DNA of 64,000 bases from Candidatus Omnitrophota bacterium (GTDB lineage: Bacteria > Omnitrophota > Gorgyraeia > Gygaellales > Profunditerraquicolaceae). Shown here one piece after another: positions 8,694 through 58,282 of the stretch (the stretch's first letter is position 1; each line of letters opens with the position of its first letter). The stretch lies in assembly GCA_025453445.1 (NCBI GenBank), contig JALOQJ010000005.1, positions 136 to 64,135 of the forward strand. The letters are read 5' to 3'. The position numbers and the translations under genes were made by a program. A model generated the notes under the pieces. The model saw only the letters and a list, made by a program, of their open reading frames with translations. It made no database searches and was not told the DNA's origin.

Positions 8694-10886
8694 ATGGTAA
8701 CAAAGCCTAAAAAAATAAAACCTAAAGTTAAAAAAATTTCAGCGGTAAAGCACAAGCCGGAAGCAAAAAAAGCTGTTCCTAGGGCCAGCCGGCCCAAGCC
8801 AACAGCTAAGCCCCAGGTTAAGCCTAAGCTGGAAAAAATAATAAAGTCAACGAAGCCAAAAGTTATGCCTGTTGTTAAGCCGCAGGTTAAACCGGAAATT
8901 AAAGTTGCAGTGAAGCCTGAAGTGAAGGTTGCATTAAAACAGGAAGTGAAGCATGTAGTAAGGCCGGAAGTTAAACCTGAACTGAAGCCGGTAGTTAAAC
9001 CGGTAATAAAACCAGAAGTAAAGCCGGAAATAAAATCAGAGCATAAACCGGAAATAAAGCCTGTAATTAAGCCGGAAATTAAACCGGAGATCAAGCAGGA
9101 ATTTAAGCAGCAGGTTAAAGAGACGGCACATTTAAAAGAATTGGTATTAAAATTTCCGGTTATTGTAAAAGACCTTGCCATAAAGCTTCAGGAGAAACCA
9201 TCGATATTAATCAAAATGCTCATGGATATGCGCATTATGGCAGGGATTAATCAGGCATTAGATGAGGAAGCAGCAGCAAAGATCTGTGAAAAATTCGGTT
9301 TTAAAATCATACCAGCGCCCGGTGAAGAAGAATTGGCATTACGTGTGCATCAGGAAGCGGATAAGCCGCAGTCTCTAAAAGCGCGGCCGCCGATAGTTAC
9401 TTTTATGGGCCACGTTGATCATGGAAAGACTTCGCTTCTGGATGCGGTAAGAAAAACCAAAGTTGCTGAGTCAGAACACGGCGGGATTACTCAGCATATC
9501 GGCGCCTACCGCGTGCATCTTCCCCACGGGGATATTACATTTTTAGATACGCCGGGGCATGAGGCGTTTACTGCTATGCGTGCGAGAGGAGCGAAGATTA
9601 CCGATATCGTAGTTTTGGTTGTTGCCGCGGACGATGGGATCATGCCTCAGACTAAAGAAGCAATTGATCATGCGCGCGCCGCCGGTGTTTCTATTATTGT
9701 TGCTGTAAACAAAATCGATAAGCCGCAGGCAGATCTTGACCGGGTAAAAAAACAACTTTCAGAAATGGATCTTTTAGCTGAAGATTGGGGTGGTAAAACC
9801 ATTACTGTCCCGGTTTCTGCTAAGACCGGTGCGGGTATAGATAATTTGCTGGAAATGATTATTCTGGAATCTCAGATGCTGGAATTAAAAGCCAATCCGG
9901 ATCGTGCAGCCAGGGGTGTTGTGGTAGAAGCAAAGATGTCTAAGGGGAAGGGGCCGGTGGCTACTCTATTAGTGCAGAATGGCACATTGCATTTAAATGA
10001 GTTTATTATCGTAGGCAATTTCCTTGGCAGGGTGCGCGCGATGTTTAATCATCTTGGCCAGGCTGTAGCTGAAGCAGGCCCGGCTTATCCGGTGGAGGCA
10101 TTGGGTTTGTCGGGAGTTCCTGATGCAGGCGAGCAATTTTTTGTGATTAGCGATGAGAAACAGGCAAAGGAAATAATTGCTTTGCGCCAAGAGCAGGAAA
10201 AACAGGCTCAGGTCAAGCAGGTTAAGCGTATCAATCTTGAAGAATTACATGCGCAGATTAAAGAAGGGAAAATCAAGGATCTGAAGCTGATTATTAAGGC
10301 AGATGTGCAGGGTTCTTTGGCGGCAATCAAAGATACGCTCGACAAAACCAATACTTCGGAAATTAAGTTAGATATTATCCATGAAGGCGTGGGTAATATT
10401 AATTCGTCGGATGTAATCCTGGCAGTTGCCTCTAACGCCCTGATTTTAGGTTTTAATGTAGTACAGGATGATTTAGCTAAAGTAATATCGGCAAAAGAAG
10501 GCGTGGATGTGCGCGTCTACAATATTATTTATGAATTAGCTAATGATATTAAAGCGGCAATTGAAGGCATGCTTGAGCCAAAAATTAAGAAAGTATTCCT
10601 GGGGAGAGTAGATATAAGGCAGGTTTTTAAGCTTTCTCGTTCAGGCATGGTAGCCGGCTGCTTTGTGAGTAAAGGTAAGATTACCCGGCAGGCGGTAATT
10701 AACCTGGTGCGTAACGGCGAGCTGATTTTTGAAGGTAAAATCAGTAACCTGAAACGTTTTAAAGATGATGTAAAAGAAGTGGCTGAGGGTTTTGAATGCG
10801 GGATTACTCTTAGCGGTTTTGACAGTATGCAGGCAGGCGATGTTATTGAGGCATATGATATAGAGAAAGTGGCGCGTAAGCTATGA
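8694..10886 (+). CDS. infB: Translation initiation factor IF-2 with a repetitive KP-rich N-terminal region
   Basis: G-domain motifs [20 protein letters not shown] and NKIDK. The N-terminus carries tandem [10 protein letters not shown]-type repeats. Confidence 0.95.
8874..9114 (+). repeat. In-frame tandem repeats inside infB, encoding (V/I)KPE(V/I)KP units
   Basis: The motif gttaaaccggaa / gtgaagcctgaa recurs with a 15-18-nt period. This is low-complexity coding sequence in the IF2 N-domain. Confidence 0.7.
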
Positions 10887-13678: not shown

Positions 13679-13699
13679 TTTCGCGTCTGCCTTGTCCAG

Positions 13700-13800
13700 T
13701 TTCTCGCTCATTGATATTGAGCGGGTCCTGTCTGCCGATCCACCTCGCCGTCCTCGCTATTCGCTGCGGGCGGCAAGGTCTTCGTCTCGGCAGTCACCCG
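13700..13800 (+). repeat. Diverged, truncated family-2-like GC-rich element
   Basis: It shares gagcgggtcctgtc, cctcgccgtcctcgct and cagtcacccgcaag with the 270-nt family-2 repeats at 21484 and 22851, in the same orientation. Confidence 0.4.
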
Positions 13801-13805
13801 CAAGC

Positions 13806-13837
13806 AATGAATTCGCTCGAAATCCGTCATATTCATT
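13806..13837. repeat. Mini-hairpin whose arms reproduce the family-1 terminal inverted repeats (aatgaattcg...catattcatt)
   Basis: AATGAAT and ATTCATT arms flank a 12-nt spacer and are near-identical to the AATGAATCTG / CAGATTCATT ends of the 237-nt element. Confidence 0.5.
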
Positions 13838-13879
13838 TAAAGCTTATATTAGCGGTTGGCTTGGCTGGGATTTCGAGTA

Positions 13880-13919
13880 CCACAGAGTAGCTGACGTTTA
13901 AACGTCAGCTACTCTGTGG
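13880..13919. repeat. 40-bp perfect palindrome (ccacagagtagctgacgttt|aaacgtcagctactctgtgg)
   Basis: Read directly from the sequence. The two 20-nt arms are perfect reverse complements with no loop. Confidence 0.95.
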
Positions 13920-13937
13920 ATAACTTTCAAGATTCCG

Positions 13938-13961
13938 CAAAAACACAGTCAAGACCCACGC
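13938..13961 (+). repeat. 21-nt motif copy (caaaaacacagtcaagacccacgc)
   Basis: It matches AAAACACAGACAAGACACACG with 2 mismatches, and the same motif recurs at 14228, 21500(rc), 22866(rc) and 23945. Confidence 0.8.
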
Positions 13962-13976
13962 TATGATAGGTTTTTA

Positions 13977-14213
13977 AATGAATCTGGCGCGTTTTCGAGC
14001 GAATGTTGATTTTAGGCAAAGCATGCTCGAGTATTTTTGGGAATTCCGATGCCCCGCGAATGCGGGGCAATATCGGAACGGCGATGCTGTTTGAGGACAT
14101 TTTGCGTATAGCGCAAAATGGCCGAGTTCAGCAGCCGCCAAAAATACGAGAGACCTTTGCCGGCCCCGAAGGGGCAAAATCGACTTTGAGCGAGAAAATG
14201 CGGCAGATTCATT
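13977..14213 (+). repeat. Family-1 GC-rich structured element, copy 1 (candidate ncRNA or MITE-like element)
   Basis: It is bounded by a 10-bp inverted repeat, AATGAATCTG...CAGATTCATT, that extends to a roughly 19-bp closing helix. Internal hairpins are ccccgc-gaat-gcgggg, cattttgcg-tata-cgcaaaatg and gccccgaaggggc. It is GC-rich against an AT-rich background. The second copy is at 23709. Confidence 0.8.
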
Positions 14214-14227
14214 AAGAGATACTTTAG

Positions 14228-14251
14228 AAAACACAGACAAGACACACGCGG
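14228..14251 (+). repeat. 21-nt motif copy (aaaacacagacaagacacacgcgg)
   Basis: Consensus copy, located 14 nt after the family-1 element and 15 nt before the queH start. Confidence 0.8.
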
Positions 14252-14265
14252 GACTATATAAACCT

Positions 14266-14799
14266 ATGAAACTATTACTACATATCTGTTGTGCGCCGTG
14301 CATGATTTATCCGCTTGAGAGCCTGTACAAGCAAAAAACTGAGGTGACGGGATTTTTTTATAATCCTAATATTTGTCCGTTACCTGAATATCAGAAACGA
14401 AGGCAGGCGATAGTAGATTTATCGACTGAGAATAAATGTGAAGTAATTTATTCTGAATACCTGCCGTCGGAATTCATGCAGGCAGTAGAGCTGAATAAAG
14501 AGCAGCCGGTCAGGTGTCTAATCTGCTGGCGGCTGCGGCTTGAGAAAACAGCTCAGGCTGCCAAGGACAAGGGATTTGATTCTTTTTCTACCACGCTCTT
14601 AGTCAGCCCTTATCAGGATCAGGAAGCGCTTAAAAAAATAGGTGAAGATATTGCCGAACAAGCCGGCGTGTATTTTCATTATGAAGATTTCCGGCCGGGG
14701 TTCAGGAAGGCGCATAATTTAGCGAAAGAAAAAGGAATCTATTGCCAGAATTACTGCGGCTGTATGTATTCGTATATGGAAAGATGCGAAAAAAAGTAA
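14266..14799 (+). CDS. queH: Epoxyqueuosine reductase QueH (DUF208)
   Basis: HICCAPC motif at the N-terminus and CxxC later in the protein. queA and tgt lie downstream. Confidence 0.8.
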   Translation: MKLLLHICCAPCMIYPLESLYKQKTEVTGFFYNPNICPLPEYQKRRQAIVDLSTENKCEVIYSEYLPSEFMQAVELNKEQPVRCLICWRLRLEKTAQAAKDKGFDSFSTTLLVSPYQDQEALKKIGEDIAEQAGVYFHYEDFRPGFRKAHNLAKEKGIYCQNYCGCMYSYMERCEKK

Positions 14800-19105: not shown

Positions 19106-19708
19106 GTGCTCTATTACGAGCGTTATTTTAAGAAAAAAGGTTTTGATTTAATTATCGGGGTTGATGAGGCAGGCCGCGGCCCGCTGGCTGGCCCGGTAGT
19201 GGCAGGGGCAGTGCTTTTAAAAAGTACGCGTTTTAAAAATCGTATTGACGATTCCAAAAAATTAACCGCCCTGCAAAGAGAAAAAGCTTATCCAGAAATT
19301 GTCGCTAAGTCTGTTTTTGGCCTGGGGATTATAGGCGAAGATGAAATTGACCGCGTGAATATCCTTGTAGCAACAGGCATGGCAATGGAGGAGGCGATAC
19401 GGTCTTTGTTAAAGAAGCTCGATCCCTACAAAAAAAATAATATCCATGTCCTTGTTGACGGCGATGTTAAGCTTAATTTAGGCCTTCCCTATACTAATAT
19501 TATCAGAGGCGATCAAAAATCAAAAAGCATTGCCTGCGGATCTATCATGGCAAAAGTCACCCGGGACAGGATGATGGTTTTTTATGACACGCTCTATCCA
19601 GAGTATGGTTTTCTGCAGCATAAGGGATATCCTACAAAAACACATAAAGCGGCAATAAAAAAATTCGGCCTTTCCCGGATACACAGGGCCACATTTTCCA
19701 GTGTCTGA
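19106..19708 (+). CDS. rnhB: Ribonuclease HII
   Basis: GVDEAGRGPLAGPVV active-site motif. Confidence 0.9.
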   Translation: MLYYERYFKKKGFDLIIGVDEAGRGPLAGPVVAGAVLLKSTRFKNRIDDSKKLTALQREKAYPEIVAKSVFGLGIIGEDEIDRVNILVATGMAMEEAIRSLLKKLDPYKKNNIHVLVDGDVKLNLGLPYTNIIRGDQKSKSIACGSIMAKVTRDRMMVFYDTLYPEYGFLQHKGYPTKTHKAAIKKFGLSRIHRATFSSV

Positions 19709-20081
19709 CGGGCATTTATCCTTAGGAAAGAGCGGTGAAGATATAGCAGTGGATTTTTTAAAGGACAACGGCTATAAAATTATAGCCAGGAATTATAAGA
19801 TCAAGCTAGGCGAGATTGATATTATTGCTGAAGATAAAGGTACCCTCTGTTTTGTGGAGGTGAAAACCAGAAGCTCTGATAAATTCGGGCTGCCTGTTGA
19901 GGCAGTTAAAAAAGCAAAACAACAACAGATCTCCCGGGTTGCCCTTATGTACCTGAAGGACAAAAGTTTATTTGATAAAAAATCCCGTTTTGATGTTGTT
20001 TCAATTATAAATTCAGCTGAAACACAGAAAATAGATTTAATTAAAGACGCCTTTGAATTAAGCCATCAATATGGCTACTAA
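19701..20081 (+). CDS. yraN: UPF0102 family endonuclease YraN
   Basis: Size and the ...CFVEVKTR motif are typical of the YraN family, and it follows rnhB as in many genomes. Confidence 0.75.
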   Translation: MSDGHLSLGKSGEDIAVDFLKDNGYKIIARNYKIKLGEIDIIAEDKGTLCFVEVKTRSSDKFGLPVEAVKKAKQQQISRVALMYLKDKSLFDKKSRFDVVSIINSAETQKIDLIKDAFELSHQYGY

Positions 20082-20102
20082 AAATTCTTTAGGAGAGCAT
20101 AG

Positions 20103-20663
20103 ATGTATAAAGAAGCTACTTTAAAAAAATACCTTGATGATTTGGCGGCTAAATTGCCTGCTCCCGGAGGCGGATCAGCTGCAGCAATGAATGCGGCAAT
20201 GGGTGTGGCTTTAGTGAGCATGGTGGTGAATTTTACTTTAGGTAAGCCAAAATACGCCCAATATGACACAGAGTTAAAGCATATCCTTAAAAGGGCGGAA
20301 GATCTTAGGAAAGAATTCTTACATTTAGTAGATTTAGATGTTACGGCGTACAAAAGTAAAAATATGCGCGATGCTTTGAATGTACCGTTTATGCTTGCCC
20401 GGCTCAGCTTTGAGGCAATAAAATTATGCCCTGTCTTGATTAAAAAAGGCAATATTAATTTGATTAGCGATGTGGTAGTAGCGGCGATTTTCTTAGAGTC
20501 AGCTTTTACCAGTGCCTATTGTAATGTGGATATAAACTTAAAAATTTTAGATGATAAAAAGCTTGCTTCTGTCATTAGGAAAGAATTAAGCGCGAAAGAA
20601 AAAAGAATCAAAAAAATCAGAAAACTCGTGGAGGAGAAAGTTGGCAAAATTATTAGAGGGTAA
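20103..20663 (+). CDS. Cyclodeaminase/cyclohydrolase family protein (FTCD C-terminal domain; methenyl-THF cyclohydrolase-like)
   Basis: The LPAPGGGSAAAMNAAMGVALVSMVVNFTLGK motif is characteristic of the FTCD_C / FchA family. Confidence 0.7.
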   Translation: MYKEATLKKYLDDLAAKLPAPGGGSAAAMNAAMGVALVSMVVNFTLGKPKYAQYDTELKHILKRAEDLRKEFLHLVDLDVTAYKSKNMRDALNVPFMLARLSFEAIKLCPVLIKKGNINLISDVVVAAIFLESAFTSAYCNVDINLKILDDKKLASVIRKELSAKEKRIKKIRKLVEEKVGKIIRG

Positions 20664-21483
20664 ACCGCTTGCGGAAAAAATTAAAGAAGAGATAAAAGCA
20701 CAAATTCAGGCATTGGGGATTAAGCCTGTTTTGGCTAGTGTTTTAGTAGGCGAGAATGCCGGTGCTGAAGCCTATGTCAAATCACAAAGCAAAGCCGCAG
20801 AAAATTTAGGGATTGTTTATCAATTTCATAAGCTTGATGCAGCTACAACGGAAGTTGCCTTAATTGAATTTATCAAGAAACTAAATAGCGATAAAAATGT
20901 TAACGGCATTATTATTCAGATGCCGCTTCCAGCGCAAATAGATTATAAAAAAATCTCTCAATTTATTTCTGCGGAAAAAGATGTTGAAGGCATGCATCCG
21001 GCAAATATAGGTAAAATAGTATTCGGTAAGGCGAAGATTCTACCCTGTACGCCGGCGGCAGTAATGGAGCTTTTAAATAGCACGGGCGTTGATTTATACG
21101 GTAAAGAGGTAGTGATTGTCGGCCATAGCGAAATTGTAGGCAAGCCTTTAGCGCTTTTGTTGCTTGAAAAATTTGCTACTGTTACAGTAGCTCATATCGG
21201 TACCAGCAAAGCTGGCAAATTAGAAGAGCATATTAAGAAAGCTGAAGTATTAATTGTGGCAGTGGGTAAGGCGGGGTTAATCAAAGGTGATTTAGTTAAA
21301 GAAGGCGCAATTGTCATTGATGTTGGGATCAATAGGGTGGATGGTAAGATTGTCGGCGATGTGGAGTTTGAAGCGGCAGAGAAGAAAGCAAGCTACATTA
21401 CACCTGTTCCCGGCGGTGTCGGTCCACTGACTGTAACTATGTTAATGCGTAATTTAGTCGAAGCTGCGAAATTACAAAAATAA
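20641..21483 (+). CDS. folD: Bifunctional methylene-THF dehydrogenase / methenyl-THF cyclohydrolase
   Basis: Length is 280 aa. The FolD motifs VGxxxxSxxYxxxK, PGGVGP and TVTxxH-like are present. Confidence 0.95.
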   Translation: MAKLLEGKPLAEKIKEEIKAQIQALGIKPVLASVLVGENAGAEAYVKSQSKAAENLGIVYQFHKLDAATTEVALIEFIKKLNSDKNVNGIIIQMPLPAQIDYKKISQFISAEKDVEGMHPANIGKIVFGKAKILPCTPAAVMELLNSTGVDLYGKEVVIVGHSEIVGKPLALLLLEKFATVTVAHIGTSKAGKLEEHIKKAEVLIVAVGKAGLIKGDLVKEGAIVIDVGINRVDGKIVGDVEFEAAEKKASYITPVPGGVGPLTVTMLMRNLVEAAKLQK

Positions 21484-21753
21484 GTTCTTTGGATTTTTTC
21501 CGTGTGTCTTGTCTGTGTTTTTTCGGGTAGTTTACGAGGGGGCGGGTCCTGTCGAGGCATATTTCTTGCAGGAACGCACGATTTTCCCCGGCGTGGAAAA
21601 TCGCGCTCGGCTCCTCGGCCTCGCTCGTCCCAGACAAGATTAGTGCGGGGGACACCGTGCCCGCTCGGCCTGCGGACGTCCTGCTCGAATCGCGCCTCGT
21701 CAATCCGCTTCGACAGGATAGAAGTCGCGCTCAAAACCGGCCAAGTCACCCGC
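21484..21753 (+). repeat. Family-2 GC-rich structured element, copy A
   Basis: Roughly 95% identical to 22851..23120. It starts immediately after the folD stop codon. Its left end carries the reverse complement of the 21-nt motif at 21500-21521. It contains the hairpin cgattttcc-acgccgg-ggaaaatcg. Confidence 0.85.
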
Positions 21754-21769
21754 TAAGACTGGTTTAAAT

Positions 21770-22345
21770 ATGAAAAATAAAAATGTCTATATAATCGCAG
21801 GGCCGAATGGATCGGGTAAGACAACCTTTGCAAGGATGTTTTTGCCTGATTATGTAAGTTGCCCAAATTTTGTAAATGCCGATCTTATTGCTCAAGGGCT
21901 GGCTCCTTTTGAGCCGCGCAGCGCGGCGATTAAAGCGGGTAAACTTGTTTTGCAGCAAATTCATGAATTTGCCGGGCGTAATGTTGATTTTTCTTTTGAA
22001 ACAACTCTATCCGGTAAATCTTACGCGAATTTACTAAGTGAATTAAAACTAAAAGGCTATGCAGTATATCTTTTTTTTCTTTGGATTCCCAATACGGAGT
22101 TAGCAATAGCCCGAATTAAAGACAGAGTTAAGGAAGGCGGACATAATGTACCGGCTGAAGATGTTAGGCGGCGTTTCCGTCGTGGTCTCAATAATTTTTT
22201 CAAATTATATGAGCCGTTGCTTGATTCGTGGATGCTGTTTGATAATTCTCAGGCTAAGCCGGTCTTGATAGCAAAAAGGCGTAATGGCCACATGGAAATA
22301 ATAAATGAAAAATTATTTGAAGCAATTCAGGAATCTTTGAGGTGA
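21770..22345 (+). CDS. Zeta-toxin/AAA_33-like P-loop kinase (COG4185-like), candidate toxin
   Basis: MKNKNVYIIAGPNGSGKTTFARMF Walker A near the N-terminus and a roughly 190-aa zeta-like fold. Confidence 0.7.
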   Translation: MKNKNVYIIAGPNGSGKTTFARMFLPDYVSCPNFVNADLIAQGLAPFEPRSAAIKAGKLVLQQIHEFAGRNVDFSFETTLSGKSYANLLSELKLKGYAVYLFFLWIPNTELAIARIKDRVKEGGHNVPAEDVRRRFRRGLNNFFKLYEPLLDSWMLFDNSQAKPVLIAKRRNGHMEIINEKLFEAIQESLR

Positions 22346-22348
22346 TGT

Positions 22349-22501
22349 ATGAAAAAAAGAATGTCCGTAGAAGATAAGGCTGAAGCAGCGCTGAAGGCAG
22401 CGGTAAGAAAAGTTGTAGAAGAGCATAAGAAGACCGGCCGGCCTTTAGCAATATGGGAGAATGGTAGGGTTATGCAAATTTCTCCGTATAAGATAAAGTA
22501 G
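22349..22501 (+). CDS. Small basic 50-aa protein (MKKRMSVEDKAEAALKAAVRKVVEEHKKTGRPLAIWENGRVMQISPYKIK), candidate partner or antitoxin
   Basis: Not in the ORF table because it is under 60 aa. A GAGGTGA RBS lies 5 nt upstream, and the ATG is 4 nt after the kinase stop. Confidence 0.45.
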   Translation: MKKRMSVEDKAEAALKAAVRKVVEEHKKTGRPLAIWENGRVMQISPYKIK

Positions 22502-22519
22502 GTGTTAAGTTATAGATAG

Positions 22520-22849
22520 ATGAAAACAATTGTTCTTTTGACTATATCAAATGTGTTTATGACTTTTGCCTGGTATGGGCATCTGAAGTTTAAAAATTCG
22601 CCGCTCTGGATTGTAGTTTTAATCAGCTGGGGCATTGCTTTTGCCGAGTATTGTTTTCAGGTGCCGGCAAACCGTATCGGCTCTTATAAATTTAGCGCGG
22701 CACAGTTAAAGACAATTCAGGAAATAATTACTCTTGTAGTATTTGCAGTATTTTCTGTGCTCTATCTTAAAGAAGAATTCAAATGGAATTATGCTGTAGG
22801 TTTCTTGTGTATCTTACTAGCGGTGTTTTTTATATTTAAGAAGTGGTAG
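22520..22849 (+). CDS. DUF486/DMT-superfamily small membrane protein
   Basis: 109 aa with four predicted TM helices and a pattern resembling DUF486. Confidence 0.6.
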   Translation: MKTIVLLTISNVFMTFAWYGHLKFKNSPLWIVVLISWGIAFAEYCFQVPANRIGSYKFSAAQLKTIQEIITLVVFAVFSVLYLKEEFKWNYAVGFLCILLAVFFIFKKW

Positions 22850-22850
22850 A

Positions 22851-23120
22851 GTTCTTTGGATTTTTTCCGTGTGTCTTGTCTGTGTTTTTGCGGGTAGTTT
22901 ACGAATGGGCGGGTCCTGTCGAGGCATATTTCTCGCAGGAACGCACGATTTTCCCCGGCGTGGAAAATCGCGCTCGGCTCCTCGGCCTCGCTCGTCCTCT
23001 AAAGTTTATTTAGGGAGGACACCGTGCCCGCTCGGCCTGCGGACGTCCTGCTCGAATCGCGCCTCGTCAACCCGCTTCGACAGGATAGAAGCCGCGCTCA
23101 AAACCGGCCAAGCCACCCGC
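22851..23120 (+). repeat. Family-2 GC-rich structured element, copy B
   Basis: Near-identical to copy A except for an 18-nt equal-length substitution block (cagacaagattagtgcgg versus tctaaagtttatttaggg). It starts 1 nt after the stop of the upstream gene and carries the motif reverse complement at 22866-22887. Confidence 0.85.
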
Positions 23121-23184
23121 GAGAAATGAACTATTTTAGATAAGTACTCAACCAAAATAGCAAATTTGATCAAAGAGGGATAAA

Positions 23185-23688
23185 ATGGAAATCGAAGTTA
23201 TTAAGATAATCGTTTATCCGGTATTAGTTACTTTTCTTACGATAACGATAGCTAAATTTCATTTTGAAAAAGATAGAAAAGTAGAATATCTTAGGGCTAA
23301 AGATAAAGTAGCGATAGATTTAATAAGGTGTCTTTGTAATATGCTTACTCACATGTGGGAAATGGTGAATATCGATCGCTGGGTGGCTAATGGTAATTCT
23401 AATCCAGATCTTCCTCAGAAACGACTACAAGCTAGAAATAATTTTTACCAATCTAGGAATGATACTACTATCTTATTAGGACTTATGGGGTTGTATTACG
23501 GTACTAAAATAGTGGATAGGATATCCCAGCTTATATCTGATTTAAACGATATGGTGAATAGTAATAATTTTTCCGCTTTTGATAAGTGGGATAATTTTAG
23601 AAGAAAAAAGTTGTTACCCATTCTAAATAAAGTTCATAAGGAATTAAAGTATACCGTATTTGATAGACCGTTTTGGGATTTAGGTTAG
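23185..23688 (+). CDS. Hypothetical membrane-anchored protein, very AT-rich gene
   Basis: N-terminal TM helix (IIVYPVLVTFLTITIA). Codon usage is far more AT-rich than in neighbouring genes. Confidence 0.5.
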   Translation: MEIEVIKIIVYPVLVTFLTITIAKFHFEKDRKVEYLRAKDKVAIDLIRCLCNMLTHMWEMVNIDRWVANGNSNPDLPQKRLQARNNFYQSRNDTTILLGLMGLYYGTKIVDRISQLISDLNDMVNSNNFSAFDKWDNFRRKKLLPILNKVHKELKYTVFDRPFWDLG

Positions 23689-23708
23689 AGTAGTTTTGGT
23701 GTTTGATA

Positions 23709-23937
23709 AATGAATCTGGAGCGTTTTCGAGCGAATGTCGATTTTAGGCAAAGCATGCTCGAGTATTTTTGGAAATTCCGATGCCCCGCGAATGCGGGGC
23801 AATATCGGAACGGCGATGCTGTTCGAGGAGCATTTGCTAGAGCAAATGCGACGAGTTCAGCAGCCGCCAAAAATACGAGAGACCTTTGCCGGCCCGCCGA
23901 AGGCGAGGCAAAATCGACTCTGAGCGAGAAAACCGAC
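23709..23937 (+). repeat. Family-1 GC-rich structured element, copy 2
   Basis: It has the same AATGAATCTG...CAGATTCATT ends and the same hairpins as copy 1, with compensatory changes: gcatttgc-taga-gcaaatgc, and cgcc-gaa-ggcg. Confidence 0.8.
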
Positions 23938-23944
23938 AGATTCA

Positions 23945-23968
23945 TTAAAGCGTAAATACACAGACAAG
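23945..23968 (+). repeat. 21-nt motif copy (aaatacacagacaagacaaacgcg)
   Basis: Located 7 nt after family-1 copy 2 and 29 nt before the metF TTG start. Confidence 0.75.
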
Positions 23969-23996
23969 ACAAACGCGAAACAGTAAGGAGTGAAAA

Positions 23997-24866
23997 TTGA
24001 ATTTTAAAGAGAAGATACAGACTGGGAAATTTGTGGTGACGTCCGAGATTGGCCCGCCTAAGGGGGTTGAGACAAAGACTCTTTTGGAGGATGCGGAATT
24101 AATTAGGGGCAAGGTTGATGGGATTAATGTTACTGATTTACAAAGCTCAGTAATGCGCTTAGGTTCACTTGCTGTTTGCGCCTTGTTGAAACAAGGTGGC
24201 TTTGAGCCGATATTCCAGTTAACTTGCCGTGATAGGAATCGCCTTGCTTTACAGTCAGATGTTTTATCAGCTGCAGCACTCGGGATTGAAAATCTCTTAC
24301 TTCTTACTGGCGATCATCCGGCAATGGGCGATCACCCGGAAGCAAAGCCGGTTTTTGACCTTGATTCAGTGCAATTATTGCAGGTAGTAAAGAAGCTGCA
24401 GGAAGGCGCTGACATGAAGGGTAATAAATTAATTGGCGAGCCGCCGAAATTCTGCATGGGCGCTGTGGTTAATCCCGGAGCAGACCCATTGGAGCCGCAA
24501 ATAATAAAGATGGAGAAAAAAATTGCTGCTGGTGCGGAATTTTTCCAGACACAGGCAGTTTATGACATAAAAACTTTCGAGAACTTTTTAAATAAAACCA
24601 AGCATTTAAAAACTACGGTTATGGCAGGTATAGTTTTATTAAAATCCGCAGGTATGGCGCGCTACATGAATAAGAATGTCGCCGGAGTATTTGTGCCGGA
24701 TAATTTAATCAAGGAGATGGAAGAGACAAAAGACAAACAAGCTAAGTCTGTGGAAATTGCTGCGCGCTTAATCAAAGAATTAAAGCCAATGTGTCAGGGG
24801 ATTCATATTATGCCTATCGGCTGGGATAAGGTTGTACCGAGAGTTTTAGAGGCAGGTGGATTATAA
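23997..24866 (+). CDS. metF: Methylenetetrahydrofolate reductase (MetF-like)
   Basis: TTG start with an AAGGAG RBS. VTSEIGPPKG and the TIM-barrel MTHFR pattern are present. Confidence 0.8.
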   Translation: MNFKEKIQTGKFVVTSEIGPPKGVETKTLLEDAELIRGKVDGINVTDLQSSVMRLGSLAVCALLKQGGFEPIFQLTCRDRNRLALQSDVLSAAALGIENLLLLTGDHPAMGDHPEAKPVFDLDSVQLLQVVKKLQEGADMKGNKLIGEPPKFCMGAVVNPGADPLEPQIIKMEKKIAAGAEFFQTQAVYDIKTFENFLNKTKHLKTTVMAGIVLLKSAGMARYMNKNVAGVFVPDNLIKEMEETKDKQAKSVEIAARLIKELKPMCQGIHIMPIGWDKVVPRVLEAGGL

Positions 24867-24868
24867 CA

Positions 24869-27454
24869 ATGGGTAATTTGCCTCAGATCCCGGGTGCCAA
24901 GAAAAAAGGCGTAATATTAATTGATACTAAGGATGACTTAAGTAAATTAGAAGGCCAGCTCATTTTTGATACTGTCTGTATCGATGGACCGGAACAATTT
25001 TCTTTTAATTTAGCCAAGTCTCTGAAAGAAAAGTATAAAGTCGGGGTTAAGGTTGTAACTAAGGATGCTTTTACCGGCGAGTTACCCGGCGATATCGAGG
25101 CAATAAATAGCCCGATACAGGAAATCGTCGGTGAGGGCAAAGCAGAAGCAGTAAAATTTAAAAACGGAAAAGCTGTTGGTATAAGTCTGGTTTTATTTAT
25201 TAATCAGGAATTGACGACTGGCGCGGATCAAAATTGCGCCAGTGTTGCCTCTGTAGGCAAAGGAGATAATATGTCAGATGTCCTTATTCAATTAGGCACC
25301 AAAGGAAGCGAAGCAGTATTAAATCTCACCCGTGGCGCGCTGGAAAAAGCAATTAAAGAAAAAGGCACCGGGCAAGCAGTTAGTTTTCCCGAGACAAATT
25401 ATTTTTTCCCTCTGATTAATGCTTTATTAAAAATTGAAGTAAAAAATCTAGGCGACTGCCTTGAAGTTTTAAAGCAAGCCGAGGGTTTAAATAAAAATCA
25501 GGCAGCTGTTAATGGTTTTAATTTAGCTGCCCTAGGTGGAATATTAAATAAAGGTATTGCAACTTTGCTTTGTGAAGAAATACTAGCGGTTTTGGCCTGT
25601 GCTGATAAAACACATCCTCAAGAGGGTTATGCTGGATTTCTTTCCGATACTTTATTGCGGTCGTTGGGTATCCAGCTGGTCGATGGCAGAATCGCCGGGA
25701 TTGCTGTAATTTTAGGCCCGGCAAAAGATGAAGATGCAGCAGTGCAATTGGTAAGGGATTTTCAGAGCAGGAGTATTGTCAGCCTGCTGGTGGGTAATGT
25801 TGCTGGCAATACTTTTAAAAAGCAGCTGGAAAATAAAAAAATCGAGATGGGCCTTGAGAATTATATCGTGCCTTTAGGCGAAGATTACCTCTCGGCGATT
25901 TATGCGGCAAACTGGGCAGTGAGAGCGCCGTTAATGTACGGCGGGCTGAAGAGCGGCCAATGGCAGAATATTTTAAATTATACCAAAGACAAAGTTCCGG
26001 CATTCATCGTGTTGCTAACTCACGTTGATGAAGTAATTGTGGCCACTGGTTTGGGCGTATTAGCCATGGGTTTCCCGATTATTACTGATTTAGAAGTGCC
26101 TCAGTTGGGAAAAATCGATACTACTTTGTATGAAGCATTGGTTACGGAAAAAGATTACAAAAAATTAGCCGGTAAATGTATTGAAGTAAGGGGCCTGAAA
26201 GTCAAAATTGCCCAGATTCCTGTGCCTGTGCCCTATGCTGCGGCATTTGAAGGAGAACGGGTAAGGCGGGAAAATTTACATATCGAATTCGGCGGTAAAG
26301 CAAGCCAGGCATTTGAGTTTCTCACCACTAAGCAATTAAATGAAATTGAAGACGGCAAAGTGGAATTAATCGGCCCGGATATCGACCAGCTTGAGCAGGG
26401 CAGCAGGTCTATGCCTTTGGCAATTATTGTAGAAGTTGCCGGACGTAAAATGCAGAAAGATTTTGAGCCGATTTTGGAACGCCAGATTCACCGTTTTACA
26501 AATTATGCCATGGGCCTGATGCATGTAGGACAACGCGATATGAACTGGATCAGGATTTCCAAAGACGCTTTTAATAAAGGCTTCCGGATTAAGCATATAG
26601 GGGTAATTCTGCATGCTATGTTACATCAGGAATATAGTGCCATAGTTGATAAGGTACAGGTAAAGCTTTACACAAAACAAGCTGACGTAGAAAAATTATT
26701 GCCGCAAGCAATGAAATCCTATGCTGAACGCGATGAGCGTTTAAGCGGAATGACTGATGAAAGTGTGGATACTTTTTATTCCTGCCTTTTATGCCAGAGT
26801 TTCGCTCCGAACCATATTTGTATGATTACGCCTGAGCGCTTGGGTTTGTGCGGCGCTTATTCATGGCTTGATGGTAAAGCATCGTATGAAATTATGCCTA
26901 CCGGGCCGAATCAGCCGGTTGCTAAAGGTGTAGCAATCGACAAAAATAAAGGCGAGTGGAAAAATATCAATGATTTTGTTTTTGCCAAATCTAATAAAAC
27001 TATCGAGAAAGTAAATATGTATTCGTTGATGGATGCGCCGCAATCATCATGCGGTTGTTTTGAATGCATTGTGGCAATCATCCCGGAAGCAAACGGGGTA
27101 ATGGTTGTGCATCGTGATTATTCAGGGATGACACCCAGCGGTATGACTTTTACTACACTTGCCGGATCAGTCGGCGGAGGAGTGCAGACTCCGGGATTTT
27201 TAGGCGTGGGGAAACTTTATATTGCCAGTAAGAAATTTATCTCTGCAGAAGGCGGTTTAAAAAGGCTGGTCTGGATGCCTAAAGAATTAAAGGAGTTATT
27301 AGGGGATAAGCTTACAAAACGCGCAGAAGAGCTGGGTGTGCCGGACTTGCTTGAGAAAATTGCCGATGAAACCAAGGCTAATACTTCCGAAGAGCTGTTA
27401 AATTTTCTGCAGCAGGTAAAGCATCCGGCTTTAGAGATGGAGCCTTTAATTTAA
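24869..27454 (+). CDS. acsB: Acetyl-CoA synthase catalytic subunit (AcsB/CdhC-like) with a roughly 130-150-aa N-terminal extension
   Basis: A-cluster region motifs CLLCQSFAPNHICMITPERLGLCGA, SCGCFEC, VWMPKELK and a C-terminal KIADET...HPALEMEPLI. The C-terminal two-thirds aligns well with acetogen AcsB as I remember it. Confidence 0.85.
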   Translation: MGNLPQIPGAKKKGVILIDTKDDLSKLEGQLIFDTVCIDGPEQFSFNLAKSLKEKYKVGVKVVTKDAFTGELPGDIEAINSPIQEIVGEGKAEAVKFKNGKAVGISLVLFINQELTTGADQNCASVASVGKGDNMSDVLIQLGTKGSEAVLNLTRGALEKAIKEKGTGQAVSFPETNYFFPLINALLKIEVKNLGDCLEVLKQAEGLNKNQAAVNGFNLAALGGILNKGIATLLCEEILAVLACADKTHPQEGYAGFLSDTLLRSLGIQLVDGRIAGIAVILGPAKDEDAAVQLVRDFQSRSIVSLLVGNVAGNTFKKQLENKKIEMGLENYIVPLGEDYLSAIYAANWAVRAPLMYGGLKSGQWQNILNYTKDKVPAFIVLLTHVDEVIVATGLGVLAMGFPIITDLEVPQLGKIDTTLYEALVTEKDYKKLAGKCIEVRGLKVKIAQIPVPVPYAAAFEGERVRRENLHIEFGGKASQAFEFLTTKQLNEIEDGKVELIGPDIDQLEQGSRSMPLAIIVEVAGRKMQKDFEPILERQIHRFTNYAMGLMHVGQRDMNWIRISKDAFNKGFRIKHIGVILHAMLHQEYSAIVDKVQVKLYTKQADVEKLLPQAMKSYAERDERLSGMTDESVDTFYSCLLCQSFAPNHICMITPERLGLCGAYSWLDGKASYEIMPTGPNQPVAKGVAIDKNKGEWKNINDFVFAKSNKTIEKVNMYSLMDAPQSSCGCFECIVAIIPEANGVMVVHRDYSGMTPSGMTFTTLAGSVGGGVQTPGFLGVGKLYIASKKFISAEGGLKRLVWMPKELKELLGDKLTKRAEELGVPDLLEKIADETKANTSEELLNFLQQVKHPALEMEPLI

Positions 27455-48984: not shown

Positions 48985-48986
48985 AA

Positions 48987-49214
48987 TTACGCTCGGGTAA
49001 TTGCGCCTTTTTTGATGCACTTAGTGCAGAGAAAAACTTTTTTCGCACGGCCGTTTACAAGGATACGCATTCTTTGCAGGTTAGGCAGAAACTTACGTAT
49101 GTTCCTGCGGCTGATTTTACTTCCTGTTCCGCCTTTTTTCTTGGCAAGGCCTTTACGCACTAAAATTTTTCCTGCAACCGCTTTTTTACCGCATATATGG
49201 CATATTTTTAACAT
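48987..49214 (-). CDS. rpmB: 50S ribosomal protein L28
   Basis: RRNIRKFLPNLQRMRI...VFLCTKCIKKG matches bL28, and an AAGGAGTA RBS lies on the - strand. Confidence 0.9.
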   Translation of the reverse strand: MLKICHICGKKAVAGKILVRKGLAKKKGGTGSKISRRNIRKFLPNLQRMRILVNGRAKKVFLCTKCIKKGAITRA

Positions 49215-49239
49215 TTTTAATTACTCCTTTAATGAGCAG

Positions 49240-49414
49240 ATAATTTACGGAGCGAAAGCGACGTAAATTATAGCTACTGTTAATTAAATGATTATCAGCG
49301 TCTGCGAATTAAACCCCACACCCAGCTACATTGAAATCTTTTATTTAGTATCTGGGTGTGTGGGTCAAATTCAGGCATACAACTTCCGTTCGCTTGCGCT
49401 CCGTAAGTTGTGCC
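49240..49414 (+). repeat. Three-hairpin intergenic element, copy 2 (rpmB divergent spacer)
   Basis: Same three-hairpin architecture as 47132, with compensatory changes in the hairpin 1 arms (cacaatttacg becomes ataatttacg). Hairpin 2 again has the ccccacacccag/ctgggtgtgtggg stem. Confidence 0.75.
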
Positions 49415-49545
49415 TTCATTTGAAGTATACTTGAAAATTCAGCCTTGTCAAATAATTAAATAAGAAAATCCTTGCTCTAATCCTCAATCAGGAGGTATAC
49501 TATAAGCACAAAATTTAAAGCGCAAAAATAATCAGGAGGTATAGA

Positions 49546-50739
49546 ATGCCTAAAACCTTAAAAGTCATCAGTATTGTTCTTTTCTTCTTTAGCCTGCTTC
49601 CCATTGTTTCTTCCCAAGCCCAAACCACTGACTCCATCCGTATTATTACCTACTATCCCTCACCCTACGGCAGTTACCGTGAACTAAGGACTAAAAGGCT
49701 GGCCATTGGTGATGATTATATTAAAACTGGCGTTCCTCCTGATAAATACGACTGGCAGGAATATGCCACTGATCCAATGCATAATATTGGTTATAATACA
49801 GACTTGGTAGTCCAAGGCAATGTGGGGATTGGGACAACGATGCCGGAATCCAATTTGGATATTGTTCAGGAAAATGGATTCCCGGTTATTTATTTAGATG
49901 GTTATGGGACAAGATCAGGAACAGTTAATTACGCCCCCCATTTTATTGGAAGGACTGCGCGTGGTACAGCAGCTTCTCCGCAAGCGACTCAATTAGGTGA
50001 TGGTTTGCTTGTTTTGCGTGGACTAGGCTATGGTTCAGGTGGATGGGTTGGCGGAAACTCCGGCTCCGGCCAGATAATAGTTTATGCAGATGGAGACTTT
50101 ACTAGTACTTCGTCTCCGGGAAAAATTATATTTTACACTACCCCTATAGATAGTACTATTAGTTCCGAGAGGATGATTATTAGTTCATCCGGCAACGTCG
50201 GCATCGGGACGACCAGTCCGCAAACGCCTGCGCCTGGAGGCGGCACTACCGGGAATTTAGATGTTAATGATGTTTATTTAAGAAGCACCGGTAAGTGGGC
50301 AAGCCAAGGTGGTGGAGGCGTTGTGCAGATGGTTTCTACTAACTATACGGGAACTATGGATAGCGCGGGTATTCCTTGGGATAATACAATTCCACTTTAT
50401 AGCGAAGGTAGCGAAATACTTACTTATGTCTTTACCCCGAAATATCCAGACAGTATGATTAGGATTGATGTTGTTGTTTCTGGTGATGAGATAGGCCAGA
50501 CTACCGCAATAGTGGCTTTGTTTAACGGTACGACCTGTGTGGATGCCGTTGCCAGTTATGGCCATGATTCACCACACGATTATAATTTGCTTTATACGGA
50601 ATCATCCGGCAGCACAAGCGCCAGGACATATTCAGTACGCGTGGGTAATATGCGGGTTAATTCTTCCAATGATATAGCTAACCCTCCTTTAGGTGGAAAG
50701 TATATTTCCAAAATGATTATTACAGAAATCCGCACCTGA
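49546..50739 (+). CDS. Secreted protein with tail-fibre-like GNVGIGTT(x)P repeats
   Basis: Signal peptide, two GNVGIGTT motifs, and a Gly/Ser/Thr-rich stretch. Confidence 0.6.
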   Translation: MPKTLKVISIVLFFFSLLPIVSSQAQTTDSIRIITYYPSPYGSYRELRTKRLAIGDDYIKTGVPPDKYDWQEYATDPMHNIGYNTDLVVQGNVGIGTTMPESNLDIVQENGFPVIYLDGYGTRSGTVNYAPHFIGRTARGTAASPQATQLGDGLLVLRGLGYGSGGWVGGNSGSGQIIVYADGDFTSTSSPGKIIFYTTPIDSTISSERMIISSSGNVGIGTTSPQTPAPGGGTTGNLDVNDVYLRSTGKWASQGGGGVVQMVSTNYTGTMDSAGIPWDNTIPLYSEGSEILTYVFTPKYPDSMIRIDVVVSGDEIGQTTAIVALFNGTTCVDAVASYGHDSPHDYNLLYTESSGSTSARTYSVRVGNMRVNSSNDIANPPLGGKYISKMIITEIRT

Positions 50740-57751: not shown

Positions 57752-58282
57752 ATGAAATACCTGTTTAGTTTGATTTTGGCAGTATTTTTATCAGCTGCCA
57801 TGGTTTCGCCGGCTTTGGCTAAAGAAAAACCTTCTTCCAAATTGCAGACGCAGAAGCTTGATTTGAATGCTGATAAAGTAAAAGAGATTATCACCATGGA
57901 GGATAAATTCGATACTGACGGGTTTTCTGTTATTACGATAGCCAGGCCTAAGGCAGATAAAATCGGCAGTTTTACTGTTCCCGGGCGTTTTAAAGCAATA
58001 GAATTCGCGGATTTATACGGAGATGGGGCCAAGCAGATCGCAGTGTATTTTGAAGGCAAGGATGCCTCTAATCATCTGGTACTTTACGGTATAAAAAATA
58101 ATAGAATATCCAGGATATTCGGGGTTGATAGTGCCTGCGATATAGAAGGGGATTTCAGCACTGTTCTGGCGCGGATAACAATAGATAAGCCTGTTTGCGA
58201 GGAAGGCAGCTGCTATTGCCCGGAGCAGCCTGAGCATGAGATCTGGATCTGGACCGGAGAAAAGTTTATCCGGGAGCGGTAA
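57752..58282 (+). CDS. Secreted hypothetical protein
   Basis: Signal peptide [23 protein letters not shown]. No family recognised. Confidence 0.5.

Follow-up and report, generated by a model that had tools for sequence, protein, structure and literature searches.

A repeat-filled spacer in a Wood-Ljungdahl operon of an Omnitrophota bacterium, a probable recombination hot spot holding a putative toxin-antitoxin pair

REP/BIME elements of enterobacteria and BOX elements of Streptococcus pneumoniae are lineage-specific, GC-rich hairpin modules found at many loci, where they lie in varied order and orientation in intergenic spacers, adjoin stop or start codons, and occur inside operons; an effect of REP/BIME elements on mRNA stability is established, and REP units, palindromes of 20 to 40 nt, go with a RAYT transposase in the genome. 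MITEs (Correia/NEMIS) are short, non-coding, dispersed elements with inverted ends, target-site duplications, and a parent insertion sequence that has the same ends, and MITE-flanked composite elements are a precedent for repeat-bounded transposable units. Neisseria has "minimal mobile elements," in which homologous recombination replaces one gene cassette with another inside conserved flanks. Integron arrays consist of co-oriented open reading frames (ORFs) without evident promoters, including orphan and toxin-type cargo, with imperfect palindromic repeats between them (attC sites, 57 to 141 nt, with RYYYAAC/GTTRRRY core sites at the cassette boundaries). The zeta-family systems epsilon/zeta, PezAT, and AvrRxo1:Arc1 pair a P-loop kinase with a tightly linked small partner gene and show a patchy, cross-phylum distribution on plasmids and islands; in AvrRxo1:Arc1, the antitoxin gene lies downstream of the toxin (PMC4938570), the same toxin-first order as in the module described below. 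Here, we report a spacer in an Omnitrophota genome that shares features with all of these.

The DNA read comprised 64 kb of one Omnitrophota genome (the window, to which all coordinates refer unless a related locus is named) and a handful of related loci (L-numbered). In the window, folD (20641 to 21483, + strand; Pfam folD domains, THF_DHG_CYH_C at 1.5e-64) and metF (23997 to 24866, + strand; Pfam MTHFR, 2.6e-35) are 2.5 kb apart, with an FTCD_C gene (20103 to 20663; Pfam FTCD_C) on the folD side and acsB (24869 to 27454; Pfam ACS/CODH beta-subunit domains) on the metF side. From folD to metF, the spacer holds a first copy of one repeat (fam2A), a zeta-like kinase gene, a 50-amino-acid (aa) ORF, a DMT_6/DUF486 gene, a second copy of the same repeat (fam2B), an AT-rich gene for a 167-aa membrane protein, and a copy of another repeat (fam1B), an order proposed by a sequence-only reading and borne out by ORF, Pfam, and repeat mapping. 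The arrangement is no assembly artefact, because an independent JGI contig (Ga0392394_0001771) carries the identical layout, at 99.9% identity over its entire length. All ORFs of the spacer are co-oriented, with promoter-like and terminator-like sites at chance frequency. The account that we favor, and hold to be probable, is that the spacer is an old, repeat-filled hot spot of homologous recombination for gene gain, swap, and loss and that the kinase pair is most likely a toxin-antitoxin module.

Both flanks are conserved, and folD is syntenic in the relatives L138, L139, and L149. In L139, folD is followed directly by metF across a 505-nt spacer without any gene, which is filled with repeats and has fam1 inverted relative to both flanking genes; L138 has fam2, an unrelated 136-aa ORF, and then mosaic repeats; and L149 has DUF975 and DMT_6 genes (folD-DUF975-DMT_6-metF), then repeats. 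The earlier claim that the segment splits a methyl-branch gene cluster agrees with the gene-free gap of L139 and the single unrelated ORF of L138. Between close relatives, the interior of the spacer is reshuffled, and the ends alone stay put.

The description of the segment as an accessory island suits the kinase-50-aa module and the 167-aa orphan and fails for the DMT_6/DUF486 gene (22520 to 22849, + strand; Pfam DMT_6, 1e-49), which encodes a small membrane protein conserved in the lineage (15 Omnitrophota members in its cluster at ≥90% identity). DMT_6 is not foreign, because the gene occupies the corresponding position in L149 and has diverged there as much as its flanks (78% nucleotide identity, equal to the 79% of metF), and it would be the ancestral resident of the spacer. 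The kinase module fills the interval between folD and DMT_6, where L149 has DUF975. The 167-aa orphan (23185 to 23688, + strand; 31.5% GC) fills the slot from the right end of fam2 to the left arm of fam1, the slot that in L138 holds the unrelated 136-aa orphan. Its product has an N-terminal membrane helix and a helical bundle (AlphaFold model all-helical, pLDDT 80); the family yielded 10 matches at 49 to 72% identity, the model had no significant match in the PDB, and the sequence had none in Pfam, PADLOC, PHROGs, or NCBIfam. In the JGI contig, the gene has a nonsense variant at 23479.

The kinase (191 aa; 21770 to 22345, + strand), a putative toxin, scored 41.1 bits with Pfam Zeta_toxin (cut-off, 22.3), over residues 56 to 147 only. 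Its AlphaFold model (pLDDT 84) has a predicted zeta-type P-loop kinase fold; in Foldseek searches of the PDB, ranks 1 to 12 were all AvrRxo1-ORF1, PezT, or zeta (E-values, 2.5e-8 to 1.1e-6; TM-scores, 0.54 to 0.69), that is, toxins solved with their antitoxins, with E-values about 100-fold better than those of generic kinases. The catalytic residues of this toxin class are the Walker A lysine, an Asp after strand 2, and Arg residues of the lid. In the kinase described here, the Walker A motif (GPNGSGKT), D38, E77-T78-T79, and R133-R135 are invariant across 19 homologs. The name "zeta-like kinase" in the sequence-only reading was well chosen: the protein belongs to the zeta/PezT/AvrRxo1 toxin superfamily and, like the toxins of toxin-antitoxin modules, forms a fixed pair with its small neighbor.

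That neighbor, the 50-aa ORF (putative antitoxin; 22349 to 22501, + strand), is separated by 3 nt from the stop codon of the kinase gene and matched nothing in Pfam at E ≤ 0.1. The same 3-nt distance was found in 9 of 10 loci (L124 to L133; the remaining one, L132, ends at the kinase), and these nine cover at least five distinct genomic contexts. At the nucleotide level, the match to other genomes begins exactly at 21769 and stops exactly at 22502. The module occurs in unrelated contexts across phyla, namely immediately 3' of tRNA-Ser genes, beside an integrase, by Tn3 on plasmids, and in the defence island of pSYSG, and on plasmids of Synechocystis, Legionella, Acinetobacter, and others, where kinase homologs carry the annotation "zeta toxin family protein." On Synechocystis pSYSG and a Legionella plasmid, overlapping ORFs of 59 and 64 aa follow the kinase homologs; they are 27 to 28% identical to the 50-aa ORF and have a K..G motif in common with it. 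Kinase and 50-aa ORF form a discrete mobile two-gene unit.

Most likely, this unit is a type II toxin-antitoxin system. By analogy with zeta/PezT (substrate, UDP-GlcNAc) or AvrRxo1 (substrate, NAD), the kinase would arrest growth by phosphorylating an essential metabolite of the nucleotide type, and the 50-aa protein would inhibit the kinase by binding to it. In L128 to L130, a promoter overlapping an inverted repeat was seen by eye upstream of the module, as in autoregulated toxin-antitoxin operons. The module in the window, unlike zeta-family systems, has lost the promoter-operator region of its own, so its transcription probably depends on readthrough from folD. Both proteins are small for the family: PezT and zeta have about 240 to 290 aa and AvrRxo1 has 421 aa, and the partner, which belongs to no Pfam family, has only half the length of the antitoxins known from zeta-family systems (98 aa in Arc1).

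Less probable, though a reading to be taken seriously, is that the protein is no toxin but a common kinase acting on small molecules or nucleotides, with the 50-aa protein as a small accessory subunit, and that the island has no addiction or defence function. Amino acid identity of about 80% across more than 100 clusters is unusually high for a toxin (the best 120 of 7,927 homologs, as cluster representatives, are at 79 to 87%), and the partial Pfam match and the lack of any sequence-level match to solved zeta toxins in the PDB point the same way. The expected link to toxin or defence families stood for the kinase in Pfam, but its matches in PADLOC, NCBIfam, and PHROGs were weak (P-loop stretches and one generic ATPase family), and the 50-aa ORF, DMT_6, and the 167-aa protein had no significant match in these three collections. 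An ordinary kinase, however, would leave unaccounted for the toxins among all 12 best structural matches, the fixed and translationally coupled partner, the spread over unrelated contexts, and the promoter over an inverted repeat in L128 to L130, all of which argue for the toxin-antitoxin reading.

Two kinds of repeat, whose similarity far exceeds chance, make up the noncoding part of the spacer. The first, fam1, is an element of about 250 nt with conserved branched secondary structure; fam1B (23703 to 23954, + strand) is followed by a terminal motif (23955 to 23980, + strand), of which the 18-mer ACACAGACAAGACACACG (23958 to 23975) sits just 5' of the metF ribosome-binding site. A second copy, fam1A (13971 to 14221, + strand), precedes a terminal motif at 14231 to 14248 and the queH start at 14266, and the two copies are 91 to 95% identical (23707 to 23895 versus 13975 to 14166). 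Besides these two copies in the window, fam1 was found in L134, L137, L139 (inverted), and L149. Folding is strongly structured (z = −11.2), and an alignment of five copies supports 88 pairs with 91% of cells paired; 19 pairs are changed on both sides, compared with 8.6 ± 2.0 in shuffles (0 of 500 reaching this number) and 0 to 7 in slid controls. The outer 20-bp helix is built from both ends of the element and thus gives it terminal inverted arms of about 20 bp. Rfam 15 had zero matches in the window at gathering thresholds and, in E-value mode over the repeats, chance-level matches only.

The 18-mer occurs five times (0.00 expected); fam1 has it at the 3' end in + orientation, and fam2 has it at the start in − orientation. 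Before metF, the motif is kept at the same site in L138, L139, and L149, and in 4 of 4 genomes examined, outward-facing terminal motifs lie directly against the stop codon of folD and the ribosome-binding site of metF. Just upstream of queH and ybaB, too, there is a unit with the motif at its end.

The second kind is an oriented GC-rich unit, represented by fam2A (21484 to 21753, − strand; 59% GC) and fam2B (22850 to 23120, − strand), each about 270 nt with GTTCTTT as boundary sequence. Read on the − strand, fam2A runs from 5' GCGGGTGACTTGGCCGGTTTTGAG to 3' AAACACAGACAAGACACACGGAAAAAATCC; its 3' motif (21501 to 21518) adjoins the folD stop codon, and fam2B, with the 3' motif at 22868 to 22885, begins right after the DMT_6 stop codon. 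The copies are 94 to 97% identical (21483 to 21630 versus 22850 to 22997, 97%; 21647 to 21753 versus 23014 to 23120, 96%) and differ in a single region, a central loop of 16 to 19 nt that differs completely. Two separate source copies fit this loop better than a simple local duplication does; the mutual identity, set against the 80 to 82% of either copy to the orthologous one in L138, indicates recent duplication or gene conversion. Homologues occur twice in L135 and also in L149. The repeats had been called structured, which is true of fam1; fam2 as a whole folded no better than shuffled sequence (z = −0.7 on the + strand and −1.7 on the − strand), and structure support is limited to local hairpins bearing compensatory changes. 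Likewise, a repeat follows DMT_6 and the 167-aa ORF, and not the other two of the four ORFs, each of which had been said to be followed by one.

Shorter units of the same superfamily occupy the ruvB-queH spacer, the second repeat-occupied spacer of the window. One (13679 to 13805, − strand) lies directly after the ruvB stop codon and is 89% identical to positions 7786 to 7929 of L138; the other (13853 to 13962, + strand) has the conserved 5' end, a perfect hairpin (13880 to 13920), and the 3' motif (13943 to 13960). Units of the fam2 type are oriented, 110 to 290 nt long with conserved ends, dispersed, and without terminal inverted repeats. Solo repeats lie in the ruvB-queH spacer, upstream of ybaB in L135, and in L134, L137, and L149, and no additional fam1 or fam2 copy was found in the 64 kb.

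The spacer can be read as a BIME- or MITE-like mosaic built from two kinds of dispersed, GC-rich, hairpin-bearing repeat specific to the lineage, the oriented units and the branched palindromic element. Since these repeats recur at many loci, also in related genomes, they would act as portable homology patches, and genes between them would be gained, swapped, or lost through ordinary homologous recombination, with no dedicated integrase. The direct fam2 copies bracket the kinase, the 50-aa ORF, and DMT_6, and one crossover between them would delete exactly 1,367 bp. Contig L121 shows such a product, with folD, a single hybrid fam2 (A-type loop, B-type tail), and then the 167-aa gene, the crossover lying inside a 57-nt stretch identical in fam2A and fam2B; this contig has no distinguishing SNPs outside the repeat and may be a chimera produced by short-read assembly over that shared stretch. 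As in the Neisseria minimal mobile elements, different whole genes occupy one slot between conserved flanks with no recombinase nearby, but the homology arms here would be the repeats themselves plus the flanking genes. The repeats resemble REP/BIME and BOX elements in the properties given above, but they have no sequence in common with them, their units are longer (110 to 290 nt, compared with 20 to 40 nt for palindromic REP units), and fam1 is branched where those form simple stem-loops.

The branched structure of fam1 and its excess of G-U pairs on one strand (15 versus 5) hint at a function at the RNA level, which the recombination model leaves unexplained. The repeats might primarily serve the operon as cis-acting RNAs or small RNAs, for instance by stabilising mRNA, providing processing sites, acting as insulators, or forming a leader of metF; they would then have no role in gene gain or loss, and the inserted genes would be incidental. 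Such a reading draws on the compensatory pairs, the fixed motif-ending unit before metF in 4 of 4 genomes and before queH and ybaB, and the known effect of REP/BIME elements on mRNA stability. We consider it unlikely as a full account, given that fam1 is inverted in L139, fam2 units run antisense to the operon, the spacer interior is reshuffled with only the ends fixed, and no Rfam family matches; an RNA function as such is compatible with the hot-spot model.

More doubtful still is a repeat-bounded transposable unit, in which the fam2 copies would be composite ends moved in trans by a transposase encoded elsewhere, with the kinase, the 50-aa ORF, and DMT_6 as cargo. Near-identical copies do bracket exactly these three genes, and conserved termini are common to many units in several genomes. 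Also, fam1 is a short, non-coding element with inverted ends in several dispersed copies, as MITEs are. However, the fam2 copies are direct rather than inverted, fam2A is orthologous to the single L138 copy, and DMT_6, by its place and divergence in L149, is not cargo. By eye, no target-site duplication was visible at the fam2 borders and no consistent one at the flanks of five fam1 copies; in the window and related loci, neither a transposase nor a parent insertion sequence was identified, and fam2-type units, unlike MITEs, lack terminal inverted repeats. We attach about as little weight to a bolder variant, in which fam1 and fam2 units would be a new class of structured mobile noncoding elements in Omnitrophota, recognised as RNA or single-stranded DNA by a trans-encoded enzyme and actively mediating site-specific gene capture or exchange at gene boundaries. 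If true, such a cassette system would differ from integrons in doing without an integrase or in being encoded remotely, and the fam2-bracketed kinase-50-aa-DMT_6 segment and the orphan slot would be its products.

The integron-like cassette array suggested by the sequence-only reading, in which repeats would be sites for an integrase encoded elsewhere and promoterless ORFs captured singly, is largely refuted within the window and very improbable: one-way ORFs with promoter-like sites at chance, repeats beginning exactly at the folD and DMT_6 stop codons, and unrelated orphans in the post-fam2 slot of two close relatives would suit it, but no gene in the 64 kb has an integrase, recombinase, or transposase domain (Phage_integrase included), intI and attI are likewise absent from the 64 kb, DMT_6 is vertically inherited at the locus, and the kinase-50-aa pair and the 167-aa family are never repeat-flanked elsewhere. 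As attC sites, fam2 and fam1 were rejected, being two unrelated families of 250 to 280 nt (2 to 4 times attC length) without R'/R'' cores and with a GTTCTTT boundary instead of GTTRRRY (core sites checked by eye). One ORF per recombination site was rejected as well, with three ORFs between fam2A and fam2B and cassette-free repeats beside the housekeeping genes ruvB/queH, ybaB, and metF and in the filled L139 spacer.

Under the hot-spot reading, even the core Wood-Ljungdahl operon of an uncultured phylum with reduced genomes has one defined spacer in which selfish and orphan genes are tolerated, and the likely reason is that dispersed structured repeats supply portable homology. Two uncharacterised repeat families are gained, one with solid covariation and no Rfam counterpart, and these repeats break short-read assemblies of the genomes exactly at the folD-metF locus. 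The module of a mini-zeta kinase and a downstream partner of about 50 aa is very widespread and unstudied, with at least 7,900 homologs, and may offer a simple system for testing zeta/AvrRxo1-type toxin biology.

All window genes lay on the plus strand, and nearly all were housekeeping, with tgt, trmD, rplS, rnhB, yraN, FTCD_C (20103-20663), and folD (20641-21483) to the left of the island. The 2.5-kb stretch between folD and metF (23997-24866; directly followed by acsB, 24869-27454, 861 aa) comprised repeat fam2A (21484-21753, minus strand), a 191-aa zeta-like P-loop kinase gene (21770-22345), a 50-aa open reading frame (ORF; 22349-22501), a DMT_6/DUF486 gene (22520-22849), fam2B (22850-23120, minus strand), a 167-aa ORF (23185-23688; GC content, 31.5%), and fam1B (23703-23954, plus strand) followed by the terminal motif, exactly the order given by a sequence-only reading. 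GC content was 58 to 59% in fam2, 49% in fam1, and 41.7% in the whole window. An assembly artefact was ruled out because an independent JGI contig (Ga0392394_0001771, metagenome 3300037461) had the identical arrangement at 99.9% identity; contigs from short reads SRR12684589 broke precisely within fam2A and fam1B.

Besides the island, the sole part of the window that did not look like housekeeping was at 48985-50739 (a 562-nt gap without genes, then a 397-aa ORF without a Pfam family; best match, the Pgp3 C-terminal domain, E 0.005, under the cut-off), together with a 176-aa ORF (57752-58282) with no Pfam match. A 1,334-aa UvrD/AddA-type helicase-nuclease (50850-54854) carried an intein in its helicase N-terminal domain (Pfam Intein_splicing, residues 291 to 639, 2.4e-17). 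A 12-nt-periodic repeat (family D1, 13/15 overlapping copies; 8875-9119) in the IF-2 gene (8694-10886) encoded the K/P/E/V-rich N-terminal region of that protein and was coding low-complexity sequence unrelated to fam1 or fam2.

The folD-metF spacer was compared with those of three relatives (loci L138, L139, and L149). The synteny check proposed for the island was borne out in L139 (MetF, 89% identity), where fhs-FTCD_C-folD was followed by 505 nt without a gene; this stretch contained 46 nt from the start of fam2, a copy of fam1 in inverted orientation (69% identity), a short unit, and the motif. L138 (MetF, 97% identity) had an orthologous fam2 (80%, with a longer central hairpin), an AT-rich unrelated 136-aa ORF, fam1 arms in mosaic around a short unit, and then the motif. 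In L149 (MetF, 87% identity), folD was followed by 9 nt, DUF975, DMT_6, 332 nt with a short fam1 and a unit, and metF, with cooS and further genes downstream up to acsB; the motif at the folD stop codon was absent. The terminal motifs at the folD stop codon (except in L149) and at the metF ribosome-binding site are therefore old and positionally conserved, and the content between them is fluid. Elsewhere in the cluster, fhs (formate-tetrahydrofolate ligase) lay between yraN and FTCD_C in L139 (4419-6113) and was missing there in the window (19701-20663) and L138, and therefore lies elsewhere or is absent. Window AcsB (24869-27454) had a long N-terminal part including a CODH_A_N domain; in L149 (9895-15763), cooS (Prismane), a ferredoxin, and a pyridine-nucleotide oxidoreductase lay between metF and a shorter AcsB (727 aa).

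The claim of an accessory island held in part. DNA identity between the window and L149 was 78% for DMT_6, matching its flanks (metF, 79%; folD, 72%), and the DMT_6 protein cluster at ≥90% identity had 15 Omnitrophota members; DMT_6 is thus a vertically inherited resident of the spacer, and the proposal that DMT_6/DUF486 is a foreign cassette fails. The kinase pair (kinase plus 50-aa ORF) and the 167-aa ORF were accessory. Homology with L149 picked up again at 22507, just past the end of the 50-aa ORF; fam2A and the kinase pair thus fill the interval held by DUF975 in L149. The slot between the fam2 right end and the fam1 left arm (window, 23121-23701; L138, 7310-7780) was occupied by the 167-aa ORF in the window and by the unrelated 136-aa ORF in L138, with homology resuming at most 14 nt from the two stop codons.

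The repeats shared an 18-mer, ACACAGACAAGACACACG, with five occurrences in the window (0.00 expected): three on the plus strand (13943 and the 3' side of each fam1 copy) and two on the minus strand (the start of each fam2 copy). fam2A and fam2B were 96 to 97% identical outside a 16- to 19-nt central loop. Their mutual identity (94 to 97%) far exceeded that of either copy to the L138 orthologue (80 to 82%), which implies that they were recently duplicated or homogenized by gene conversion; the loops are unrelated, which argues for two source copies. Reverse-complemented fam2 was aligned with intergenic elements of other metagenomic Omnitrophota-type contigs, and the alignment showed that fam2 belongs to a family of oriented units, starting with GCGGG(T/G)GA.TTGGC.G.G.TTT.GAG, finishing with CCCG..AAACACAGACAAGACACACG..AAAAATCC, and having interiors of variable length (110 to 290 nt). 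Such units were found in the window (13679-13805, minus strand; 13853-13962, plus strand), L138 (7006-7314), L134 (4330-4595), L139 (7870-7985), L149 (8813-8974), and L135 (two, on a 9.5-kb contig).

Whole fam2 did not fold better than shuffles (z = −0.7 and −1.7). Two local hairpins showed compensatory changes that preserved pairing when the L135 copy was set against the window or L138 copies (6 pairs changed on both sides versus 2.1 ± 1.0 in shuffles; weak evidence from four sequences). The idea that the inverted terminal motifs pair as a long-range RNA duplex and loop out the island was dropped because left and right motifs within a genome were no more complementary than motifs across genomes. 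Rfam gave nothing credible for fam1 or fam2 at gathering and E-value thresholds. A degenerate pattern (15 specified bases) returned chance matches from genome contigs (L001 to L119), none with fam1 or fam2 content, and an exact 20-mer scan of metagenomes gave four loci and missed even the same-population JGI contig. Viral contigs contained two 18-mer matches, both chance, and no relatives of the kinase or the 167-aa family. A literature search found general MITE papers only and none on Omnitrophota repeats.

By comparison with shuffles, fam1 (∼250 nt, with ends that pair with each other) folded far better (−131 kcal/mol; z = −11.2). A branched structure of 88 pairs was supported (five copies, four genomes; 91% of cells paired), and 19 pairs changed on both sides versus 8.6 ± 2.0 in shuffles (0/500) and 0 to 7 with slid partners; G-U pairs exceeded A-C mismatches (15 versus 5) on the strand corresponding to plus in the window. 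fam1B was 88 to 95% identical to fam1A (13971-14221), which lies between ruvB and queH. That spacer (13679-14250) was a second nest of the island's repeat modules, composed of a short unit in reverse orientation, part of a fam1 arm, a second short unit containing a perfect hairpin (41 nt, 13880-13920), fam1A, and the motif. JGI gene calls within it were spurious (70 aa inside fam1A; 42 aa upstream on the opposite strand).

The kinase had 7,927 homologs at E ≤ 1e-5, the best 120 of which were 79 to 87% identical, came from Omnitrophota and from bins labelled Rikenellaceae and Syntrophaceae, and, where named, were "zeta toxin family protein" or "predicted ABC-type ATPase." The 50-aa ORF followed 3 nt after the kinase in every locus extending beyond the kinase gene, with different neighbours each time, and DNA similarity to other genomes was limited to window 21769-22502; the pair is thus a discrete unit. 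It lay directly 3' of tRNA-Ser in two genomes (L124, 5889-6732; L129, 5839-6732). In L124, part of the tRNA 3' end was repeated ∼110 nt past the module, which in this respect resembles a very small integrative element with att-like sites and without its own integrase. In three contexts the pair had an apparent promoter of its own, in a conserved 75-nt leader whose TTGACG...TAGAAT overlaps an inverted repeat (by eye). Only 16 nt separated fam2A from the kinase ATG in the window, where the pair is without its own promoter.

Plasmid homologs of the kinase (48 to 55% identity) were found on Synechocystis pSYSG and a Legionella plasmid, each with an overlapping downstream ORF (59 or 64 aa) that aligned with the 50-aa ORF. 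The Legionella homolog adjoined Tn3; the pSYSG homolog neighboured type I R-M, PIN, MNT, and DUF4433-macro genes. The pSYSG pair (L152, 1920-6393), from a cultured organism, was flanked by a type I R-M S subunit plus MNT-type nucleotidyltransferase on one side and a DUF4433-macro (DarTG-like) pair on the other. A publication that terms the region a defence island leaves out the kinase pair (PMC4963859), which is absent from the published catalogue of Synechocystis toxin-antitoxin systems. A literature search on COG4185 returned nothing.

An AlphaFold model of the kinase (pLDDT, 84) had AvrRxo1-ORF1, PezT, and zeta as its 12 best PDB matches (E 2.5e-8 to 1e-6), every one solved with its antitoxin, and generic kinases only from E ∼1e-5. 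PDB searches by kinase sequence and profile found no zeta toxin; the fold search alone matched. The 50-aa ORF follows the kinase gene just as the antitoxin gene follows the toxin gene in AvrRxo1:Arc1 (PMC4938570). The unusually high conservation of the kinase, its lack of sequence-level matches to solved zeta toxins, and PADLOC matches that were weak and at the P-loop level count against a toxin; on balance, we consider the pair a probable toxin-antitoxin module of the zeta/AvrRxo1 kind. Of the toxin or defence role first proposed, the presence of a toxin-type module was upheld. Across PADLOC, NCBIfam, and PHROGs, the kinase gave weak matches only (P-loop stretches, one generic ATPase family), and the 50-aa ORF, DMT_6, and the 167-aa ORF gave nothing significant.

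The 167-aa family was small (10 matches, 49 to 72% identity), with an invariant AKFHFEK motif. Its model was a membrane helix with a helical bundle, and a fold search returned generic helical bundles (E > 0.2) and no significant structural neighbour. One homolog had Dcm-Vsr-HNH, a ThsB-like TIR protein, a caspase, and HipBA as neighbours; others adjoined an ion channel. On the JGI contig, a nonsense change (G>T at 23479) split the ORF into 98- and 67-aa fragments, which suggests that the gene is dispensable. The ORF as a passenger of the repeats was dropped, with no fam1 or fam2 near homologs elsewhere, and we treat it as an orphan accessory gene.

An integron-like cassette array had been suggested for the island, and the analogy fails: no integrase, recombinase, or transposase domain was found in any window ORF of ≥110 aa (JGI gene tables were also checked), the repeats failed the attC definition in size, sequence, and distribution, and they were not one-to-one with ORFs. 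The likeness was confined to co-oriented ORFs with palindromic repeats between them.

Instead, the repeats may act as dispersed homology for recombination. Double crossovers (repeat by repeat, or repeat by folD or metF) would exchange the genes in between, which would explain both the swap in the orphan slot and the kinase pair occupying the DUF975 position of L149. One crossover between fam2A and fam2B, which are direct repeats, would remove the 1,367-bp kinase-50-aa-DMT_6 segment, and contig JAOQIB010086553 (L121) had the exact product expected (folD, one fam2 with an A-type loop and a B-type tail, and the 167-aa gene), the switch lying within a 57-nt identical stretch (21647-21703). This contig had no private SNPs and for that reason could also be an assembly chimera. 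The island is best read as a mosaic hot spot that resembles BIMEs or MITEs and bears a zeta/AvrRxo1-like pair; its most original parts are the structured fam1 and the widespread, unstudied mini-zeta module.
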